Virus record (IMG/VR): IMGVR_UViG_3300032257_000007 | DNA length: 20,000 nucleotides | Strand: one strand, 5' to 3' | DNA from: an uncultured virus (IMG/VR IMGVR_UViG_3300032257_000007) | Lineage: Duplodnaviria; Heunggongvirae; Uroviricota; Caudoviricetes | Shown here: positions 3,022-20,000 of the stretch, one piece after another | Numbering within the stretch: position 1 is the first letter of the stretch | Layout: each line of letters starts with the position of its first letter | The notes under the pieces: generated by a model | Told to the model about the DNA's origin: nothing | Databases searched by the model: none | The model's input: only the letters and a program-made list of their open reading frames with translations | Position numbers and translations under genes: made by a program

Positions 3022-3157
3022 TAGCTTTATCCATTTCAGCTACAATCGCATCTTCTTTTTGAGCCTTGTATAAATCATGTTGTCTTCCTTCATAATCTGC
3101 ACATGCATCTTCAAACTGCTCTGGTGTATCATAGTCATCACTACTTGGACATGCCAT
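3005..3157 (-). CDS. Small acidic hypothetical protein (50 aa; not in ORF track)
   Basis: Strong SD AAGGAGG; MACPSSDDYDTPEQFEDACADYEGRQHDLYKAQKEDAIVAEMDKASVPSK*; overlaps the thyX end. Confidence 0.7.
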   Translation of the reverse strand: MACPSSDDYDTPEQFEDACADYEGRQHDLYKAQKEDAIVAEMDKASVPSK

Positions 3158-4091
3158 TTAAAACTACCTCCTTCTTCAAGTCTCTGTACTGTTCAAGCAA
3201 TCCTCTGATAGCAAAAGAGAATTCTTGAGTCTCTGGTTGAGTCCAGTTCTTTGGACCGCCATCATCCATGTAAGCATTTCTCTCACGAAGAAAGTGAGGC
3301 CATGCATCATCATCATTGATTAGACCAGTAATCACAAACTCTTTCATCTTAAAGTAGTAAGGTGCACGACTGTAAATTTCTCTTGGGTATCCAAGTTCTT
3401 TTAAGAAGTCCTGTACTTTAGATTGGGGAGCGTGATTTATCATCCAGTCCACAAAGTTTTCTGCACACATTCCATTCGGAGGGTTTACATAGTCCATTGA
3501 GTATTTTCTGATAATGTCACGTCTTGTGATGGGGTTGTTCTCGAGGTCTAGTCTTTCATCTAGGTCGTCTGGTAGCCAATAGTCAGCTTCTTCTGATACA
3601 CGATCACTCTGTGATTCAGTAGATAACTGAGTGTGGGTTACAATTTGAGCCCATACAAACATAGGTGCTTTGATTCTGAATGCAGCGAATACTTGATTGT
3701 CATCCGAGTAAGGAATTTTCTCATACTCTGCACCAGCTTCAATAAGTGCTCTCATATTTGTATACAGCATCTCCGACTTAGGATCGGCATGAGAGAACTT
3801 TGCAAGTTTGATAGCCTTCTCGTGTTCTTCTATACCAAGATCTTCAGCCTGGTTAAAACTCATAGTTACAGGCATAAACTCGAAAGGCCTAGAAGGTCTC
3901 CCGCTTTCTGCTTCTGTCATTAAAGCTTTGTACCGCTTAGGTGGGTTAGCACTTTTATCTTTTCCTCTACTGATAGCAGCAAGCTCTGTTGTCCAGTGAA
4001 TTCTGGCATCTTCATTTGCATTGCTTCCAGTCGGGTCTAAAAACTCAATGTAACCATTTCCGTATTCTCCAATACTAACTCTCTTCTCCAT
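3141..4091 (-). CDS. thyX: Flavin-dependent thymidylate synthase ThyX-like protein, divergent
   Basis: PSRPFEF, FRIKAPMFVWAQIVTHTQLSTESQSDR (RHRx7S-type motif read as THTx7S), HFLRER and TQPET (cf. AQxEI). Confidence 0.75.
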   Translation of the reverse strand: MEKRVSIGEYGNGYIEFLDPTGSNANEDARIHWTTELAAISRGKDKSANPPKRYKALMTEAESGRPSRPFEFMPVTMSFNQAEDLGIEEHEKAIKLAKFSHADPKSEMLYTNMRALIEAGAEYEKIPYSDDNQVFAAFRIKAPMFVWAQIVTHTQLSTESQSDRVSEEADYWLPDDLDERLDLENNPITRRDIIRKYSMDYVNPPNGMCAENFVDWMINHAPQSKVQDFLKELGYPREIYSRAPYYFKMKEFVITGLINDDDAWPHFLRERNAYMDDGGPKNWTQPETQEFSFAIRGLLEQYRDLKKEVVLNGMSK

Positions 4092-12169: not shown

Positions 12170-12551
12170 TTTCTCCCTTGAAGAATTTAGTTAAGTCTTG
12201 AGCTCTAGCTAACAGCTCAGAAACCACTTTTGAATATCTTACAGCCATCATTGTGAATGGTTTTTGGAATGAAGATACTGGAACCTCTTTCCCATCTGTC
12301 ACTACAATGTGGTCTTCAGTAATATCCACTGCTCTTCCTCTGAATACGATAATGAAAGATACATATGAAATACCATCTTCTTTAATATCGAATGCCCATT
12401 TAGTTGCAGAAATCTTAACGAACCCGATGTCTTTAAGATCATGTATTACTCTAGATTTGGCTGAGAGATTATCTCTGTTGTCATTTGTGTATTTTTCTAA
12501 AGAGTGTGTCAGCTCTAACAATTCTCTCTTTAGCAACTCCGTGTCATTCAC
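12156..12551 (-). CDS. Hypothetical protein (131 aa)
   Basis: GTGA overlap with the NYN gene stop; SD AAGGAG. Confidence 0.8.
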   Translation of the reverse strand: MNDTELLKRELLELTHSLEKYTNDNRDNLSAKSRVIHDLKDIGFVKISATKWAFDIKEDGISYVSFIIVFRGRAVDITEDHIVVTDGKEVPVSSFQKPFTMMAVRYSKVVSELLARAQDLTKFFKGEIDEV

Positions 12552-13117
12552 GTAATCTCCTTCTCTATGTGCTTTATGTTTGGGTTGAATAGCTCATGTA
12601 AAGCAATACTTCTGAACTGCTTCAGATTGTTCGACATGTTTTCTTTGTGCGCTATCACGATGATCTCAGTCCCATAATGTTCCTGTACATACTTTAAAGC
12701 ATTAAGCATGTCGTCATCCCCACTCAGTATTATTAATCTTTGGTACTTAGAGCCTAAAGTATGTATTGCATGAATAATTTCTCCATCCATGTCACACTCT
12801 TCATATTCATATACCGTGCGTGTTCCCTTAATATCGATTATGTTATCAAGCTTCTTGACAATTTTCTCGACTACTTCAAACCCCTGCGATCTTAAGAAAT
12901 CCAAGAATCTGATGTTCTTCCCATATCTCTGATCATCTTTACTAAACGCTTTTGCAAACGCATGAAAGTTGAAATGCACATCTGGGAATGTTTTTAAAAT
13001 AAGTTCTTTTGCTAAAAGCATATCTACTTTTGGCAGAAGGTATTCGTTGCGTCTATGAGTGATTGGTGTTTTCAAATTTTCCATATCACACAAGACGAGC
13101 GTTCCTAGCTTATTCAT
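12548..13117 (-). CDS. NYN-domain (LabA/DUF88, PIN-like) putative ribonuclease, 189 aa
   Basis: Start moved to ATG 13117 (SD TAAGGA); motifs LCDMEN, ECDMD, ILSGDDDM, S..L. Confidence 0.82.
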   Translation of the reverse strand: MNKLGTLVLCDMENLKTPITHRRNEYLLPKVDMLLAKELILKTFPDVHFNFHAFAKAFSKDDQRYGKNIRFLDFLRSQGFEVVEKIVKKLDNIIDIKGTRTVYEYEECDMDGEIIHAIHTLGSKYQRLIILSGDDDMLNALKYVQEHYGTEIIVIAHKENMSNNLKQFRSIALHELFNPNIKHIEKEIT

Positions 13118-13208
13118 CGTCTGGTTCCTTAGATGCTCTTCCGAGCAAGAAACCAAAACCTATAATAGCTAAGAGTATTCCACCAATTACTGTGCCTATA
13201 CTCATCAT
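13110..13208 (-). CDS. 32 aa single-pass membrane peptide (not in ORF track)
   Basis: SD AAAGGA; MMSIGTVIGGILLAIIGFGFLLGRASKEPDDE*; overlaps the NYN start. Confidence 0.7.
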   Translation of the reverse strand: MMSIGTVIGGILLAIIGFGFLLGRASKEPDDE

Positions 13209-13266
13209 CTATCCTTTATCCTTAATTAGTCCACTAAACCTCAAATAGATTATTAGCTTCACCAAT

Positions 13267-13294
13267 AGTATATACCATTTTTTTGCTGGCTTAA
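13267..13294 (-). promoter_or_regulatory. Putative promoter of the leftward operon (TTAAGC-16 nt-TATACT)
   Basis: Lies in the divergent intergenic region; resembles Campylobacterota housekeeping-sigma promoters. Confidence 0.45.
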
Positions 13295-13354
13295 TTCTTT
13301 TTTTTTGGGTATTATTACATTCAGTTAAAATAAGAAGAAACGGAGTTAAAAGTC

Positions 13355-16027
13355 ATGAAAATAGAAGATTTTTGGAGTTTTTTACGGGAAAATAGCGATT
13401 TTTTCAGTAAAATGGCCACTTTTTCGTCAATTAAGATTGATTTTAAAAGAGGCATTTATTATATAGATGACGGTTGGATGGCAGATCCTTTCTTTTTAAT
13501 CCTAAGACTTTTTAGAGACAAATTTAATGAGCTTGGCCCATCTAATGACCAGGAGTTTACCCGAATACAGAAGATGTTAAATGCTTCTAGAATTAAGACC
13601 CCATTCGGTAAAAAAGAGTATGACTCTTATGTAAATGTCGAAACTCGAAACCAAACACTCCTTAACCTGCTAGAGGTGACTCTTGGTGCCAATGATGGCA
13701 AGTTTATGATCCCAACGAAAGAGTATTCCAATCAAAAGTTTAAGGATATCTCAAATGATATGGAGAACGTATTCTCAGGATTGTTTATTTATGAGCACCG
13801 AGAAGCACGGTATTATGTTGATATTTACGACAGACTGACTGGGTTTGAAGTATTCCTCGATAATGGAACAATCTATATACCAGTTAGGTTTGAGGGCATA
13901 CATCGGTCAGCGTTTAAAGAAGACTCACTTAGAAAAGTCGATATAGAGGGAGAGGTATCGATCTCAGATATGTCTTTCACATTATCCCTTGAGGATAGGG
14001 ATGCTGTCTATATCCCAGAAGAGTACACGGACAGCATTATTAACGTAGCAAGGTACTTCAGAGTATTTGATATAGTTAACGAGGATGACCAATTCATTCT
14101 TAATACAGCTGAGTCAATCTACAAGTATGCTTATGACGACCCTTCCATAAAAGCAAACGGGGTATTATTTACGAGCTACCTTGCCGATCTGATGATATCA
14201 AAATACACAGAGTCTGGCTCATCTTCAATTGCCGCTCTCATTGATATAGCAAGGGTTGCCTCTGCTATGACAAAAGTGCACAAGAGTGTGTTGATAGATA
14301 ACATCTCGAAAGATATTAGTGGTGAGGTCATAGAACTTGTTAAACCATACATAGATGGGTCGGATGATAATCATGTTGCTAAGATTAGCGAGCTTACAAT
14401 TAAGTCTAATCTTGAATTCTGCTCCAGGGTAATCAGACTCAATGGGGACCCAAGTTCAATTAGGTTCTTCAATAAGAAGATGAAGTATTACAAGGACTTT
14501 AATGTAGACAGAAATGGGGTTCTTAACGACCTTATTCCTGAGCTTGGTGGCTTCAGATACATAGCATCATTCTGTAATATTTCAAGTGACAACGTACCAG
14601 CTGGGTATACTTCAGTAGACTCTTTTATTATATACGCAATACTGAAAGTTGTTCAAAGTGAGTTCGGATCACTTCCTGTGTTTGATAGGTTCTATGGGGA
14701 TGGGATACATTCAATATTTGACAAGATTGTGTTTAACTCAAGTGATGGAGTGCACGGCCTTGATGGTAAGCATGGATACAATGGAGTCCTTTTACAGCCA
14801 GCTGATATAGATGTTAAAATTCCAAAGCTTAGAGCGACAAAGCAGTCAACCGAGTCAGCAATCTCTGAAATAGTTGATGCCTTTTCGGGGTTTGTATCTG
14901 GATCAGAGGACAGAGATATGCTTGCTGCAGTACTCACAGCATCCTCTTTAGTTGTGCCTATATTGAAGAATGCAAACAAACCAGTCATGGCTATCTATGG
15001 GTGCGGTCCGTACACTATGGATGGGGCAAAAAAGAAGATTTTTAATGGTGTGTTTAAGAACGCACATGTTGTTAATACAGACAGCGACTTTGTCATCAAG
15101 AATATAGCCGATGGAAGCAGTTGTATGCTTGTGACAACAATGAATAAGTCAATCAATAAGGTTCTAAACAAGCTTGCTACAGAGAGGTTTGGGTCAGAAA
15201 CTATAAGTAGGTTCAAAAACACGGATAATGTAGTAAAAACCACCAATACAGCCCCGATTTTGGTGTTTACAGAGGAAATGTGGCTTATAGATGAGTCGAT
15301 TGTGTTCAATTTTCCAGCTAGAGCAAGCAGTGAAGCGGGGTCCTTCTTGTATGAAGACGATGATGTGTCTGGAACTATTGCATCTTTCGTCATGAGCAAT
15401 GAGAAGAAGCTGCTTTCACTCGAAGAAAAGTTTGTTGCCAAGGTGAAAAAGGAGCTAAAGAAGAAAAAAATGACTTCAAAACACCCTTATGTTGACTTTT
15501 TTGAGAAGATTCTGGCTTCTATGTGTTTAGTTGAAGCAACAGGCTTCATGGATGGATGGGAATTCCACGATAAGATGCATTCTGTCTATTTCAATGATGA
15601 TAACATCAGATATTCTGTGAATTTTGAGAAATTAATACTCTCTATACAGAATGGTTCTTCAAAAGTTGAGGATAAGTTACACGACCAGAACTTAAGAATG
15701 AATCAAAACGGAGATTCTGTTGCTGTAGACAAGGTTTTTCACATGTCATACCTTGAGAAAGAAGAATCTGATGTATATGTACTTCTTTTTGACAAAAGAG
15801 TTGTGTACAAGGCTTTAAAAGCTGATTTAAACATAGGATATGTGGAATTTGTCCAAGCAATAGAAGCTCTTAAGTCGTATATAAACATAGAAAATGCAAT
15901 GAGAAACTACAGACTAGGGTCAGACAAGACAAAGACCATTTACAACTGGTATTTAGAATTATTTGATGGTGTAAAAGATGATTTTGGATGTATAAAAATA
16001 AACAAAAAGTCCTTTTATGGCCTTTAA
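13355..16027 (+). CDS. 890 aa protein, possible degenerate primase-helicase (Zn-ribbon/TOPRIM/DUF927-like remnants)
   Basis: Long ORF with SD GGAG. Remnant motifs SIKIDFKRGIYY...ADPFFLI, VYIPEEYTD, SSLVVPIL...PVMAIYGCG without GK[ST]. The CDS is secure; the function is tentative. Confidence 0.6.
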   Translation: MKIEDFWSFLRENSDFFSKMATFSSIKIDFKRGIYYIDDGWMADPFFLILRLFRDKFNELGPSNDQEFTRIQKMLNASRIKTPFGKKEYDSYVNVETRNQTLLNLLEVTLGANDGKFMIPTKEYSNQKFKDISNDMENVFSGLFIYEHREARYYVDIYDRLTGFEVFLDNGTIYIPVRFEGIHRSAFKEDSLRKVDIEGEVSISDMSFTLSLEDRDAVYIPEEYTDSIINVARYFRVFDIVNEDDQFILNTAESIYKYAYDDPSIKANGVLFTSYLADLMISKYTESGSSSIAALIDIARVASAMTKVHKSVLIDNISKDISGEVIELVKPYIDGSDDNHVAKISELTIKSNLEFCSRVIRLNGDPSSIRFFNKKMKYYKDFNVDRNGVLNDLIPELGGFRYIASFCNISSDNVPAGYTSVDSFIIYAILKVVQSEFGSLPVFDRFYGDGIHSIFDKIVFNSSDGVHGLDGKHGYNGVLLQPADIDVKIPKLRATKQSTESAISEIVDAFSGFVSGSEDRDMLAAVLTASSLVVPILKNANKPVMAIYGCGPYTMDGAKKKIFNGVFKNAHVVNTDSDFVIKNIADGSSCMLVTTMNKSINKVLNKLATERFGSETISRFKNTDNVVKTTNTAPILVFTEEMWLIDESIVFNFPARASSEAGSFLYEDDDVSGTIASFVMSNEKKLLSLEEKFVAKVKKELKKKKMTSKHPYVDFFEKILASMCLVEATGFMDGWEFHDKMHSVYFNDDNIRYSVNFEKLILSIQNGSSKVEDKLHDQNLRMNQNGDSVAVDKVFHMSYLEKEESDVYVLLFDKRVVYKALKADLNIGYVEFVQAIEALKSYINIENAMRNYRLGSDKTKTIYNWYLELFDGVKDDFGCIKINKKSFYGL

Positions 16028-16030
16028 CTG

Positions 16031-16060
16031 TTGACTTTTGAAGGATTGTAACAGTATAAT
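16031..16060 (+). promoter_or_regulatory. Sigma70-type promoter TTGACT-18 nt-TATAAT
   Basis: Near-consensus boxes in the intergenic gap, followed by a small 5' hairpin AGCTC-AATCAC-GAGCT (16070-16085) and SD AGGAG. Confidence 0.7.
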
Positions 16061-16119
16061 ACTCATCACAGCTCAATCACGAGCTAGGTTATACAAAAAA
16101 AATAAGACAGGAGAACACA

Positions 16120-16323
16120 ATGGGTAAAGATTACTCTAATATGTCAACCGAACAAATCATGGAAGAAGTTATTTCAATCTTCAAAGAAGTTGAAAATGAC
16201 TGGGAAAAGCTTAAAGATCGTCAAAATGCTGCGGCAGGACGTCGTATTCGTAAATCACTTGACGAGGTTGCTCGTATCAAGGTAGACTTACGTAAAGTAA
16301 TGTTGGCTGAAGAACGCTCATGA
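16120..16323 (+). CDS. Hc1/histone-H1-like small helical protein (67 aa)
   Basis: QNAAAGRRIRKSLDEV.......RK matches the GNKAAGxRxRKxxxEL pattern of the Hc1-like family. Confidence 0.7.
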   Translation: MGKDYSNMSTEQIMEEVISIFKEVENDWEKLKDRQNAAAGRRIRKSLDEVARIKVDLRKVMLAEERS

Positions 16324-17024
16324 AAGCAATGTTTGTAGCCCCAGACTTAGCTGTCTTGGCTCAAATGCTTTCCGCCTCAACAAGTAAAGAAAAACTTGTT
16401 GAGAACATGAAAGCTTTAGTTGAGAGCGATAATTACGAAGACAGACTTAAAGCAATTACTGAAAATCCGTCTAACTTAAGATTCTCGTGGATCAAGTTTG
16501 ACAAAAACGAAGAAAATTTGGAGTTCTTTACATCTTTATTGTTGCTTTCTGCTAACAATAACTATTCAACGTCTACAAAAGACCTGGTTATGACTCAAGA
16601 CTGTACATTTGTTAACAGCAATCTTCTTGACGCTTATAAGCAGGTTTCTCAAGGCGAAGATGCTAATATTGATCTTGACCTGACAGACAAGATTAATAAA
16701 GACAGACTTATGTCGTTATGTGAAGACATGTTTGATGAGCCGCAATTCGTAGAGTTATTCTCTACTGAAAATGGACCTCAGATGTTTATGCTAGCTGGAA
16801 ACTTTTGTGTGGATACATGGGGAATGTTGTCTACAATCGGTACAGTTTCTCAGAGAAGCTATGCTCTTTCTACTGGAGATGGTAAAGAGAAAGTTCCTGG
16901 TATCTGTGTGATGTTTGGTTTGTCTATGACAACACTTCTTCATATTGAAGCTAACGCTGAAAAGATGCCTAAGCATATTGAAGAGGATTTAAAATCTCTT
17001 CCGAAAGCGCAGGAGCCTAAGTAG
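16320..17024 (+). CDS. Hypothetical protein (234 aa)
   Basis: ATGA overlap with the upstream gene; TAG overlaps the next GTG. Confidence 0.85.
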   Translation: MKAMFVAPDLAVLAQMLSASTSKEKLVENMKALVESDNYEDRLKAITENPSNLRFSWIKFDKNEENLEFFTSLLLLSANNNYSTSTKDLVMTQDCTFVNSNLLDAYKQVSQGEDANIDLDLTDKINKDRLMSLCEDMFDEPQFVELFSTENGPQMFMLAGNFCVDTWGMLSTIGTVSQRSYALSTGDGKEKVPGICVMFGLSMTTLLHIEANAEKMPKHIEEDLKSLPKAQEPK

Positions 17025-17449
17025 TGAGAAATCTTAGCTTCTTCGTCATCACTCAAACTAAAGAACAGTACCCTCATGTACTTGCCTCTTCGTTTGAGAG
17101 AGGAATGATATATCCTTATCCTCATGCTTATATTTACAAGATGGATGAATCGGATGAAGAGTATACTTTTGTGAGAATGAGACCATTGCACGAAAGATGT
17201 GCCACTGTTAGAGACTCAAGGTTGAATAACAACGGCATAGGGATAGTCCTTTATAATCCTACTGGCAATCCTCTTACGGAGAAAGCTAAGAAGCTCATTG
17301 CTACTGTGATCAGAAACTTCGTTGATGATTTTGGTATAATTCAGTACCAGATTGTAACGGATGAATCTTCTGCCGATGCATTCGTGGATACACTCGATTT
17401 CCCTGCGATGGTAGATGCGTCTCCATCAGCTTTTACGAAAAGGACTTAA
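17024..17449 (+). CDS. Amidase_2/T7-lysozyme-fold protein, predicted catalytically inactive (141 aa)
   Basis: GTG start, SD AGGAG. FFVITQT, YPHAYI, RMRP, NNNGIGIVL, PLTEKAKKLIATVI...DFGI follow amidase_2 motifs in order; Zn ligands absent. Confidence 0.65.
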   Translation: MRNLSFFVITQTKEQYPHVLASSFERGMIYPYPHAYIYKMDESDEEYTFVRMRPLHERCATVRDSRLNNNGIGIVLYNPTGNPLTEKAKKLIATVIRNFVDDFGIIQYQIVTDESSADAFVDTLDFPAMVDASPSAFTKRT

Positions 17450-17451
17450 CA

Positions 17452-17664
17452 ATGGTAATTCTAGTTAAAGATCAAAATGGAACAGAAAAAGCTCTTAGAC
17501 TTGGAGACTTATCTTGGAGAGCGACAGAACTTTCTAATGATAATTCAAAAGTTGAATTAAGCATAGACCCTGATATTGTAGTTGTTATTGACAAACTACA
17601 GTACGAATCAATCAAAGATAGACTTTCAGCATCTGGTGAAATTTTAGATCTTACTACCTTCTAA
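17452..17664 (+). CDS. Hypothetical protein (70 aa), small beta-rich domain with a C-terminal helix
   Basis: SD AAGGA; lies in operon just before the RNAP gene. Confidence 0.8.
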   Translation: MVILVKDQNGTEKALRLGDLSWRATELSNDNSKVELSIDPDIVVVIDKLQYESIKDRLSASGEILDLTTF

Positions 17665-17674
17665 ATCAATAATA

Positions 17675-17713
17675 TGCTAAAATACGCAAAACAACATAAA
17701 GGTTTTTGCGTAT
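17675..17713 (+). promoter_or_regulatory. Extended -10 promoter (TGCTAAAAT, 17675-17683) overlapping a hairpin that sequesters the RNAP start codon
   Basis: ATACGCAAAA (17682-17691) is the perfect reverse complement of TTTTGCGTAT (17704-17713); SD-like AAAGGT in the loop; the AT of the ATG is in the stem. Confidence 0.65.
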
Positions 17714-20000
17714 GGCAACCTTCAGAAAACTTAATAGAAATCATAAAGAAACAGACCAAGCTGTAAAGAACAAGATACTATCTGCGGTAGCATCGGTATT
17801 TCCTATCGAAGGAAACATGTTCAGACTAGAGGCTTCTAACTTTCAAATCAAAGAATCAGACTCATCGTTAAGTGACGTTAAAAGTGCTCTAGTAAAGGGT
17901 TCTTCAATAATGTCTAGCATCAGTGCAAACCTTGTGCTTATTGATAAACAGTCAGGTAAGCGAGTCGATTCTAAGACAAGATCTATTATGAGAGTTCCTG
18001 ACTTTACAAGCAAAGGTTCTTTTGTAGTTGAGGGTAACTCATACACTATCCCATATCAGCAGAGACTTAGACCTGGTGTCTATACTATGAAGAAAAGAAA
18101 TGGAGAGATTAACTCCATGTTTAACCTTGGTAAAGGTAGAAACTTCAACATTAAGATAGATAAGAGTGGTATCTTCAGAATTAAAATAGGTTCATCTCAT
18201 GTTTCTTTATATTCAATCCTTAAAGACCTTGGAGAGTCTCCATCTGCTATGGAAGCTATTTGGGGTAAAGAACTGTTCCAGCTCAACTCAAAGACGTACT
18301 CAACAACAGACTCAGCTAAATTTCTAAAAGCATTTAAATACTCTACTGATGACTTGCCAGAGAACACAGACGTAAGAAAAGAACTTACTGATGCTATCTC
18401 TCAGTCTACAGTAAACAAGAATGTTATGATCCATACGGTTGGTGTAGATAAAGAGACAATTGATTCATCTGTAATCCTTGCTGCCTCTAAGAGACTTCTT
18501 GGAGTGTATAAAGGAACTGAGGACCAGGACGACAGAGAGAATATGATGTTCAAACAAGTTATGGCACCAGAAGATATGGTGTCAGAAGCATTTGTTAAGA
18601 ACTCAAGAGAAGAACTTAATAAGCTTAAATTCAAACTAAATAACCCAGACATGTCGAAGGTTGATGATGTGTTTGGATCAAGCACTTCTGCTTTGACTAG
18701 ACCGATCAAAAATTTCTTGACAAGTTCTAAAGCTACAAGACTTGGAGAAGAGTATAATCCTCTTATGATGCATACAACTGGACACTTCATCACTCCGATG
18801 GGAGAAGGTGGTGTCGGTGATGACAGAGCGCTTAATCTTGACACTAAAGCAGTCCATGCGAGTCACTTTGGGTTTATTGATCCGCTAGTATCACCAGAGG
18901 GTTCTAAAGTCGGTGTTACTCTTGCCGTTACTGGTAACTCATATGTAGATGAAACTGGTGCTCCTGCAATTGGTGTATTGAATGCTAAGACAGGAAAGAA
19001 AGAGATTGTAACTGTTGCCGAGTTATGGGATAAGAATGTAGCGTATCCTATTTCAAAAGAAAGAATCAAGTCCGATGGGATTATGGTTCGTAGAGGTAAT
19101 GAGGACTTTAAGGCGAAGACGAAAAAAGATGTTGACTATATCATTGAGAAGCCTTCAGATATGCATGCTCCTTCAAGCAATATGGTTCCTCTTATTAACT
19201 CATCTGATGCGAATAGAACGAATATGGCTCAAAAGCATTTACAGCAAGCTCTATCAATTAAAACAAGGGAGAAGCCACATGTTTCAGTTGGACACGATGG
19301 CAAGGATTTTGCCGCAGTTGTTTCTTCTGAGTCTGGTCATTTACCTCATGCATCAATGGCTGGTGAAGTTACGAAAATAGACGACAAGTTCATCTATATT
19401 AAGGGTGAAAAAGGGCAAGAGAAAGTTGACTATGTGCAAAACATGCCTCTTGCAAGAAAGACTTTTATTGACCATAAGCTTCTAGTCAAAGTTGGGGATA
19501 AGGTTAAAAAAGGTCAAGCCTTAGCAGACTCTAACTTTACCAAAGACGGGCACATGGCTCTTGGTAAAAATGTAAGAACCGCATGGCTTTCAATGCCAGG
19601 TAATAGAAATGATGGGATTATTATTTCTGAATCAGCATCTGAGCAGTTTACTTCTGAGCACATGTATAAAGAGAACGTGCATATCAATGCAAGTGAATCT
19701 CTTGACATGAAAAAGTTTAACAACTTATTCCCAAGTGTAGTATCTAAGTGGGGTGGTTCAAACTATGACACTCACGGTGTGATAAAGAAAGGGACAAAGC
19801 TTACCAAAGGACAACCTCTTGTATTTAAGCTTGCTAAGACAGATGCTAGACAAATCAAGACTAAGCTAGAGAAAGTTATGCATAAACCTTTTAAAGCTGT
19901 TGTATCTACATGGCACCACCAAGATCCAGGTGAGGTTATTGATATTGAGAGAGGTGCATCTGAAATCAGAATCACTGTCAAGGTTGAAAGTAAAGCCAAG
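17712..20000 (+). CDS. rpoB: Phage-type multisubunit RNA polymerase beta subunit (RpoB-like), partial, at least 763 aa (not in ORF track)
   Basis: Translated by hand with no stop to the window end. Motifs GSFVVEG...QQRLRPGVY, DDREN, NPL...MGEGG, VHASHFGFIDPLVSPEGSKVG, VPLINSSDANRTNMAQKHLQQA, VKVGDKVKKGQALAD, MALGKNV...NDGIIISE. Confidence 0.95.
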   Translation, partial: MATFRKLNRNHKETDQAVKNKILSAVASVFPIEGNMFRLEASNFQIKESDSSLSDVKSALVKGSSIMSSISANLVLIDKQSGKRVDSKTRSIMRVPDFTSKGSFVVEGNSYTIPYQQRLRPGVYTMKKRNGEINSMFNLGKGRNFNIKIDKSGIFRIKIGSSHVSLYSILKDLGESPSAMEAIWGKELFQLNSKTYSTTDSAKFLKAFKYSTDDLPENTDVRKELTDAISQSTVNKNVMIHTVGVDKETIDSSVILAASKRLLGVYKGTEDQDDRENMMFKQVMAPEDMVSEAFVKNSREELNKLKFKLNNPDMSKVDDVFGSSTSALTRPIKNFLTSSKATRLGEEYNPLMMHTTGHFITPMGEGGVGDDRALNLDTKAVHASHFGFIDPLVSPEGSKVGVTLAVTGNSYVDETGAPAIGVLNAKTGKKEIVTVAELWDKNVAYPISKERIKSDGIMVRRGNEDFKAKTKKDVDYIIEKPSDMHAPSSNMVPLINSSDANRTNMAQKHLQQALSIKTREKPHVSVGHDGKDFAAVVSSESGHLPHASMAGEVTKIDDKFIYIKGEKGQEKVDYVQNMPLARKTFIDHKLLVKVGDKVKKGQALADSNFTKDGHMALGKNVRTAWLSMPGNRNDGIIISESASEQFTSEHMYKENVHINASESLDMKKFNNLFPSVVSKWGGSNYDTHGVIKKGTKLTKGQPLVFKLAKTDARQIKTKLEKVMHKPFKAVVSTWHHQDPGEVIDIERGASEIRITVKVESKAK

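Follow-up and report, generated by a model that had tools for sequence, protein, structure and literature searches.

The window analysed here, a 20-kb stretch of DNA that forms the terminal part of a 77,665-base virus record (estimated completeness 72%), encodes a 141-residue protein of predicted amidase_2 fold. To judge from the sequences of its family, this protein is very probably a pseudoenzyme without canonical amidase activity. Its gene is most tightly linked to the gene that overlaps it upstream in 7 of 7 loci and encodes a 234-residue protein (P234). This link was missed in the first-pass annotation of the window, which had instead connected the dead amidase with the phage RNA polymerase (RNAP). 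The explanation that we prefer, with a probability of roughly 40%, is that the protein has become a binding partner of P234 in a module, likely a late one, for assembling or loading the virion head. We favour P234 as the partner because it is the most constant link of the dead-amidase gene.

Genomic setting

The features discussed below are collected in Table 1. Relatives of the cassette were found in six further loci (L001, L002, L007, L008, L010 and L011; L009 is the L007 contig). Two aspects of the sequence suggest that the host of the phage is probably a member of the Campylobacterota. The solved structure closest to the SSB of the window is 2vw9, which we take to be the Helicobacter pylori SSB, and the promoter-like sites of this genome are similar to the Campylobacter jejuni -10 element with its T-rich TG extension, as characterised in the cited part of PMC3824568. 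The 890-residue protein encoded upstream of the cassette is without family assignment; it is conserved in L001, L010 and L011, and its gene is transcribed away from the replication arm.

Table 1. Features of the window; positions are window positions unless prefixed G000, which denotes the coordinates of this genome.
Feature	Position	Strand	Remarks
Replication genes	window	-	dUTPase, ThyX-like, SSB, DnaB, RecT, exonuclease
Divergent ThyX-like protein	3141-4091	-	replication arm; under Pfam cut-off (E 0.00059)
NYN-domain nuclease	12548-13156	-	replication arm; E 5.7e-9
Plus-strand gene order	window	+	890-aa gene, Hc1-like gene, P234, 141-aa dead amidase, 70-aa gene, front half of RNAP gene
890-aa protein	13355-16027	+	
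Sigma-70-type promoter-like site, TTGACT-18-TATAAT	16031..16060	+	heads the Hc1-like/P234/dead-amidase/70-aa run
Hc1 (histone H1-like) family protein, 67 aa	16120..16323	+	Pfam Hc1 E 7.2e-8, over cut-off
P234, 234-aa protein, constant upstream partner gene	16320..17024	+	stop codon overlaps dead-amidase start
141-aa predicted amidase_2-fold protein without zinc ligands	17024..17449	+	GTG start 17024, stop 17449
70-aa protein gene	17452..17664	+	in 5/6 informative loci; absent in L010
Extended -10 element TGnTAnAAT	17675..17683	+	directly 5' of RNAP gene
9-base inverted repeat	arms 17683-17691/17704-17712		covers likely ribosome-binding site, reaches RNAP start codon
Fused beta/N-terminal beta-prime RNAP gene, 5' half	17712..20000	+	Pfam Rpb2_6 E 6.2e-11
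Divergent sigma-like protein (L055)	G000:C1:5407-6021		missed by Pfam
Beta-prime C-terminal part, separate gene (L055)	G000:C1:15433-17181		Rpb1_5 E 2.8e-18

A predicted amidase fold without its metal site

The reading frame was confirmed as the second gene 5' of the RNAP gene, with the 70-residue gene between the two. The amidase fold, which had been proposed by eye from a comparison with T7 lysozyme, is borne out as a prediction. An AlphaFold model built from 32 sequences reached a pLDDT of 89 and a pTM of 0.84, and Foldseek searches with this model ranked amidases at the top in both libraries. Among 48,161 representative chains, the 18 that scored Z≥5 against the model were all amidase_2 or PGRP structures, and the next fold reached only Z 3.7. 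The closest were the Clostridium proteins LysC/LysCS (Z 14.2-14.3, rmsd 2.4 Å over 122 residues), while PGRPs scored 12-13.3 and T7 lysozyme 12.7-12.8. Profile-profile alignment of the 32-row family with nine phage amidases gave a probability of 83% (E 9e-6, 74 columns), and in the Atlas the protein reached a TM of 0.71 against Amidase_2 clusters. Sequence similarity is faint: the Pfam Amidase_2 match of the window protein is sub-threshold (17.4 bits against a gathering score of 26, E 0.0059), Amidase_2 was detected in 10 of 26 family members (best E 0.00033), and searches of solved structures with the single sequence or a profile matched no amidase. An amidase_2/PGRP fold is thus well supported as a prediction, without specific likeness to T7 lysozyme.

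The active site of T7 lysozyme comprises His17, His122, Cys130 and Tyr46, as set out in the cited section of PMC4573324, and the His/His/Cys zinc triad is retained in all nine aligned phage amidases. In profile alignments T10 of the window protein falls on His17, P33 on Tyr46, T61 on the His of the GAH motif, and T112 or D113 on His122. The by-eye pairings of T10 and P33 therefore hold, as do the alignments originally proposed for the NNNGIGIV and LTEKAKK segments; the pairing of T10 is further backed by the structure (model residue 1 corresponds to T7 residue 8) and by a global alignment. Loss of the zinc ligands, likewise claimed for the window protein, extends across the family. Histidine is found at positions 6-14 in 0/29 rows, at 112 or 113 in 0/32 and at 114 in a single row of 32. 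Cysteine occurs after residue 107 in one row of 32, outside both candidate registers for Cys130; these lie at about 117-121 by the structural end-point and at 133 by sequence, and although the register is unsure the result is the same either way. With all three zinc ligands missing, the protein is likely inactive as an amidase. The catalytic tyrosine is a more nuanced case: it is replaced by proline in the window as proposed, but three of 31 rows (P0026, P0028 and P0029) retain Tyr46.

The family comprises 31 relatives of the window protein, giving a 32-row alignment with 21-74% identity, in which R53, P54, D64, G73 and D102 are invariant and G27, Y30, H34, R63, S65, G104 and F137 nearly so. 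The residues that appear to be newly conserved map to the former groove region (C59 in 25/32 rows, R63, D64 and S65) and to the end of the long helix (D102 and G104). Mean column identity is 0.43 for helix 1 (residues 13-26), among the least conserved parts of the protein, 0.64 for residues 27-38, and 0.63 for the former groove region (50-75), which is among the best conserved. Mismatch at first, second and third codon positions is 0.30/0.23/0.53 against L001, 0.26/0.22/0.58 against L002 and 0.42/0.28/0.66 against L010. Third positions thus vary about twice as much as first and second positions, which indicates that the gene is conserved as a protein. No longer or fused forms occurred among the 13 matches (92-145 residues) of an unrestricted search of representatives, and no relative was found in 50,697 annotated phage records or in GTDB genome contigs. 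Two scans of viral contigs with the window protein or its close relatives, and one with the window RNAP, returned no locus. A further candidate locus, L003, was dropped as a false match.

P234 and the gene cassette

The P234 and dead-amidase genes overlap by 1, 14, 14, 14, 14, 17 and 14 bases in the seven loci. Profiles of the two proteins match the identical seven loci among L001-L021, and both genes are missing from G002, G007, G008 and Salmonella phage Arash. Their divergence is similar, with identities of 21-59% for P234 and 26-61% for the amidase, and of 43-64% for the RNAP. The P234 family counts 20 members, in which TW, G and F residues are invariant; no Pfam, PHROG, PDB or Atlas assignment was obtained for it. 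The idea, formed by eye, that P234 might be a dead ThyX was unsupported by hhalign, which gave probabilities of 0.1-0.3% against five ThyX-like proteins.

The surroundings of the pair are more variable. On its 5' side stands the portal gene in L007 and L008, the 890-residue and Hc1-like genes in the window, L001 and L010, the Hc1-like gene in L002, and a homologue of the 890-residue gene in L011; in L007 and L008 the Hc1-like gene is absent from this position. In L010, the dead-amidase gene lies immediately 5' of the RNAP gene. The promoter-like site ahead of the run agrees with the consensus at 11 of 12 positions, the best of 18 sites in 13000-18000, a total that is at chance level. An identical -35/-10 pair occurs at the same place in L001, L002 and L010. 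In these three loci and the window, the cassette thus stands behind a -35/-10 site and the Hc1-like gene, away from the portal, and it could there be expressed earlier.

Linkage to the RNAP gene

The RNAP gene runs off the end of the contig; in relatives it encodes about 1,440 residues. Full-length relatives with the DxDGD motif are present in L007 and L008, and the window RNAP is 28% identical to Arash Gp206. Synteny with this gene, to which the first-pass annotation had drawn attention, is conserved: the dead-amidase gene lies at most one gene from the RNAP gene in 6 of the 6 loci with downstream DNA, counting L001, whose contig holds just the first codons of the RNAP; the L002 contig ends inside the dead-amidase gene. 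The pair also remained beside the RNAP gene where the portal had moved off (window, L001, L010 and L011), in what was a single rearrangement.

The RNAP family also exists without the dead amidase. The gene accompanies 4 of the 14 RNAP loci found by scanning and is not seen in the other 10, of which L020 has hardly any upstream DNA. Searches of whole records did not find it in any of 10 more distant RNAP-bearing records, which included the complete isolates Arash and Vibrio phage D69 and otherwise ranged from 9 to 92% in completeness (the L019 and L020 records are not among them); the same search recovered both of two known carriers used as a positive control. In a midpoint-rooted RNAP tree of 15 rows, from which L001, L002, L006, L019 and L020 were left out, the five carriers form one clade with support of 96/97. 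Since the carriers are a single clade, the linkage counts as one event, and the gene was likely gained once. The portal gene is also close to the RNAP gene in Arash, D69, L017 and L021, at most two genes to its 5' side. The RNAP neighbourhood thus holds the portal, and adjacency to the RNAP gene is therefore adjacency to head genes as well.

Of six carrier loci, five have an extended or plain -10 element (TGnTAnAAT or TATAAT) no more than 60 bases from the RNAP start, as do three of six non-carrier loci; in the background, 3-9% of 60-base windows contain one. A -10 element also heads the dead-amidase cassette in 6 of 7 loci. Given separate elements before the cassette and the RNAP gene, there may be two transcription units with similar timing. 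The inverted repeat that reaches the RNAP start codon may control RNAP expression, either as an operator or by forming a hairpin in the RNA. In L001 it carries one paired change on both arms; the form was not seen in L008, L010 or L011.

Other parts of the transcription machinery lie elsewhere in this genome. A separate gene, some 60 kb away from that of the fused RNAP, encodes the C-terminal part of beta-prime; the two parts share one frame in L018-L020. The divergent sigma-like protein has a homologue in L014 (E 1.2e-8), in which Sigma70_r3 is detected over the cut-off, and it is a candidate specificity factor of the phage RNAP. We considered whether the module substitutes for a missing sigma factor and rejected this, as Sigma70_r2 was undetected in carriers (0/3) and in the non-carriers G002, G003 and G007 alike; the presence of the sigma-like gene counters the idea further.

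A model for the dead amidase as a partner of P234

In the model that we propose, an ancestor of the carrier clade would have captured a plain amidase_2 gene, with lysis left to other enzymes such as the product of the GH108 gene in the complete relative G009. The metal site would have decayed, and the former peptide groove would have been remodelled, with R53, C59 and R63-D64-S65, into a binding surface for another protein. Translational coupling through the overlapping codons would then supply P234 and the dead amidase one to one.

Several observations are consistent with such a course. The GH108 lysin of G009 is a clear match (E 5.1e-18), and no Amidase_2 match above the cut-off was found in five records; lysis therefore seems to be independent of the dead-amidase gene. 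Inactivated enzymes in structural roles have a precedent in viruses, as described in the cited portion of bioRxiv 10.1101/2022.11.22.517515. The RNAP of Arash, Gp206, gave the most spectra in purified particles, and the authors of that work warn in the cited part of their paper that enzymes may have been carried over (PMC10585845). Upstream of P234 in L007 and L008, the -10 element is of the same type as the one ahead of the head protease gene in this genome. This -10 motif stands before 19 of 59 left-arm genes of this genome and 2 of 28 replication-arm genes (Fisher p 0.014, a post hoc comparison). The left-arm enrichment was not reproduced in G009 (11/23 against 3/4) or G010 (3/26 against 3/13), and the structural names assigned by PHROGs in the left arm are those of the protease and portal only. 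The promoter class is thus a weak indication that the module is late. Many genes of the left arm (G000:C1:1-52300) carry TGnTATAAT 16-35 bases before their start, with no -35 box, and the host sigma-70 enzyme may accordingly read the virion genes.

Some points count against this model or leave room for another. In phage operons, stop and start codons often overlap. The possible earlier expression of the cassette where it stands away from the portal also speaks against it. Furthermore, the persistence of the pair beside the RNAP gene after the portal had moved fits an interaction with the RNAP as well.

Alternative explanations

The chief alternative is binding to the two-barrel RNAP, by the dead amidase on its own or together with P234. 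By analogy with T7, it would then be either an accessory subunit or a silencer of newly made RNAP until packaging or ejection. Linkage to the RNAP gene was kept through a change of upstream neighbours and, in L010, the loss of the 70-residue gene, and the like -10 elements before the cassette and the RNAP gene make equal timing likely. Zinc is unnecessary for the inhibition of T7 RNAP by T7 lysozyme, and the interaction region spans residues 2-52, according to the part of PMC5445346 cited here. Part of the stretch matching that region, residues 27-38, is well conserved in our family, but helix 1, which also lies inside it, is not. T7 lysozyme inhibits its polymerase through an N-terminal tail, as stated in the cited passage of PMC10138996, and this tail is missing here: the His17 column is preceded by 9 residues in 26 of 29 rows, as in plain amidases, by 4 in two and by 23 in one, against 17 in T7 lysozyme. 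Several further points argue against a role at the RNAP. Ten of ten more distant records carry the RNAP without the dead amidase, the RNAP gene has a -10 element of its own in 5 of 6 carrier loci, the carriers represent one clade and hence one event, and the target, a beta/beta-prime enzyme, is unrelated to the single-subunit RNAP of T7. Moreover, the second RNAP subunit and the sigma-like gene are encoded far off in the genome, so that partners of this RNAP need not be its neighbours. Of the regulatory role first suggested for the protein, the non-catalytic fold and the conserved proximity to the RNAP stand, but a T7-like mechanism is unsupported, and the analogy with T7 lysozyme is weak. Overall, we consider binding to the RNAP unlikely.

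A more specific form of this idea is slightly less probable again. Here P234 and the dead amidase would be an accessory module that, through the rebuilt groove and not an N-terminal tail, silences the newly made form of a virion-packaged RNAP of bacterial type or escorts it into the head.

The protein might instead be a non-catalytic binder of peptidoglycan, like some PGRPs, serving as a wall anchor for the virion or lysis machinery or as a scavenger of wall fragments. The first-pass annotation had offered a sensor of this kind as its second option, and the amidase fold without zinc ligands is as that option would have it. PGRPs score well against the model, the former groove region is well conserved, and 18 of 32 rows retain Asn in the GxN motif. 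On the other hand, the groove Tyr is missing from 28 of 31 rows and the GAH His from all 32, if the PGRP columns map as assumed here, and these losses weaken the case. The groove Tyr and GxN Asn columns presumably correspond to Tyr242 and Asn269 of PGRP-I-alpha-C. Both residues are among those reported to bind ligand in the cited part of PMC13078761. An export route is also hard to see, in that the highest 19-residue hydropathy among the 29 full-length rows is 1.56, with no hydrophobic segment, and the median pI is 5.6. Tail or lysis genes are not nearby in the window, L001, L008, L010 or L011; L007 has a GH108 gene after that of the RNAP, encoded on the opposite strand. We regard peptidoglycan binding as distinctly improbable.

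Similarly improbable is an enzyme with new chemistry, in which the zinc site would have been replaced by H34, R53, C59, R63, D64, S65 and D/N113. Across sequences of 21-74% identity, these polar positions show little or no variation; however, H34 and R53 are motif residues inherited with the fold (the His of GYH, and GR), and C59 is replaced by Asn or Thr in 7 of 32 rows.

An active amidase with unusual metal ligands, or a decaying pseudogene, is very improbable. The former might be suggested by the 7 of 29 rows with Glu in the His17 column, the 31 of 32 with Asp or Asn at 113 and the three that keep Tyr46. The window protein itself, however, carries Thr, Pro and Thr/Asp in these places, and all nine phage amidases compared retain His/His/Cys. 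Decay is excluded by the intact reading frames of 32 relatives together with the excess of third-position changes.

Relation to known systems and significance

Returning to our preferred reading of the dead amidase as a partner of P234, comparison with known proteins shows what the family has kept and what it has changed. With the amidase_2 endolysins (PF01510; LysC/LysCS of Clostridium intestinale, 6ssc and 6srt; 7f5i; Ts2631, 6fhg) it shares a predicted fold (Z 12.9-14.3, rmsd 2.4-2.8 Å, 122 residues), traces of the GYH, GR and GxNxxSIGI motifs, and a short N-terminus of the kind found in 5 of 9 phage amidases. It differs from them in its low identity (11-16%), in the missing His/His/Cys triad and GAH His, in the mostly lost Tyr, in the new RDS and DxG motifs, and in the position of its gene beside portal and RNAP genes. 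T7 lysozyme (gp3.5; 1lba, 1aro_L) has the same predicted fold and likewise comes from a phage with its own RNAP, but it is an active amidase with a tail that acts on a single-subunit enzyme, whereas the present family is tailless, only 10-11% identical, and accompanies a two-barrel beta/beta-prime RNAP. Non-catalytic animal PGRPs (PGRP-S, PGRP-SA and PGRP-I-alpha-C; Z 12.2-13.0) also have this fold without zinc; they keep their groove residues and bind peptidoglycan, in contrast to the phage family with its replaced groove Tyr and GAH His and no export signal seen.

Arash (OQ632216.1; PMC10585845, in the part cited) and D69 share the RNAP architecture and the portal-RNAP neighbourhood with the carriers. 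They have a gene of 92-97 residues between portal and RNAP and no amidase-fold gene, and Arash is also without P234. A parallel in kind is offered by the exapted enzymes of orthopoxviruses, which, in the cited text of bioRxiv 10.1101/2022.11.22.517515, similarly keep a fold with a disrupted site, faint sequence homology and a conserved gene; here the virus is a tailed phage, the fold is amidase_2, and the structural role is a proposed one.

The exaptation of dead enzymes in viruses and the existence of non-catalytic PGRPs are already known (cited parts of bioRxiv 10.1101/2022.11.22.517515 and PMC13078761). Our literature search, whose coverage excluded most subscription journals, found no description of an inactive phage amidase family tied to an RNAP, and the terms amidase and lysozyme do not occur in the available portion of the mReC paper (PMC7481178). 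The family offers a clean case of a phage pseudoenzyme, a predicted lysin fold that lacks the zinc site across one clade and sits in a fixed two-gene module by the RNAP gene. It also carries a warning for annotation, in that structure- and embedding-based searches will label the protein an endolysin. P234 and the dead amidase are two small candidate accessory components of the head, or of a phage RNAP that has received little study. Should binding to the RNAP prove true, the amidase fold would have been recruited twice, independently, to control unrelated polymerases.
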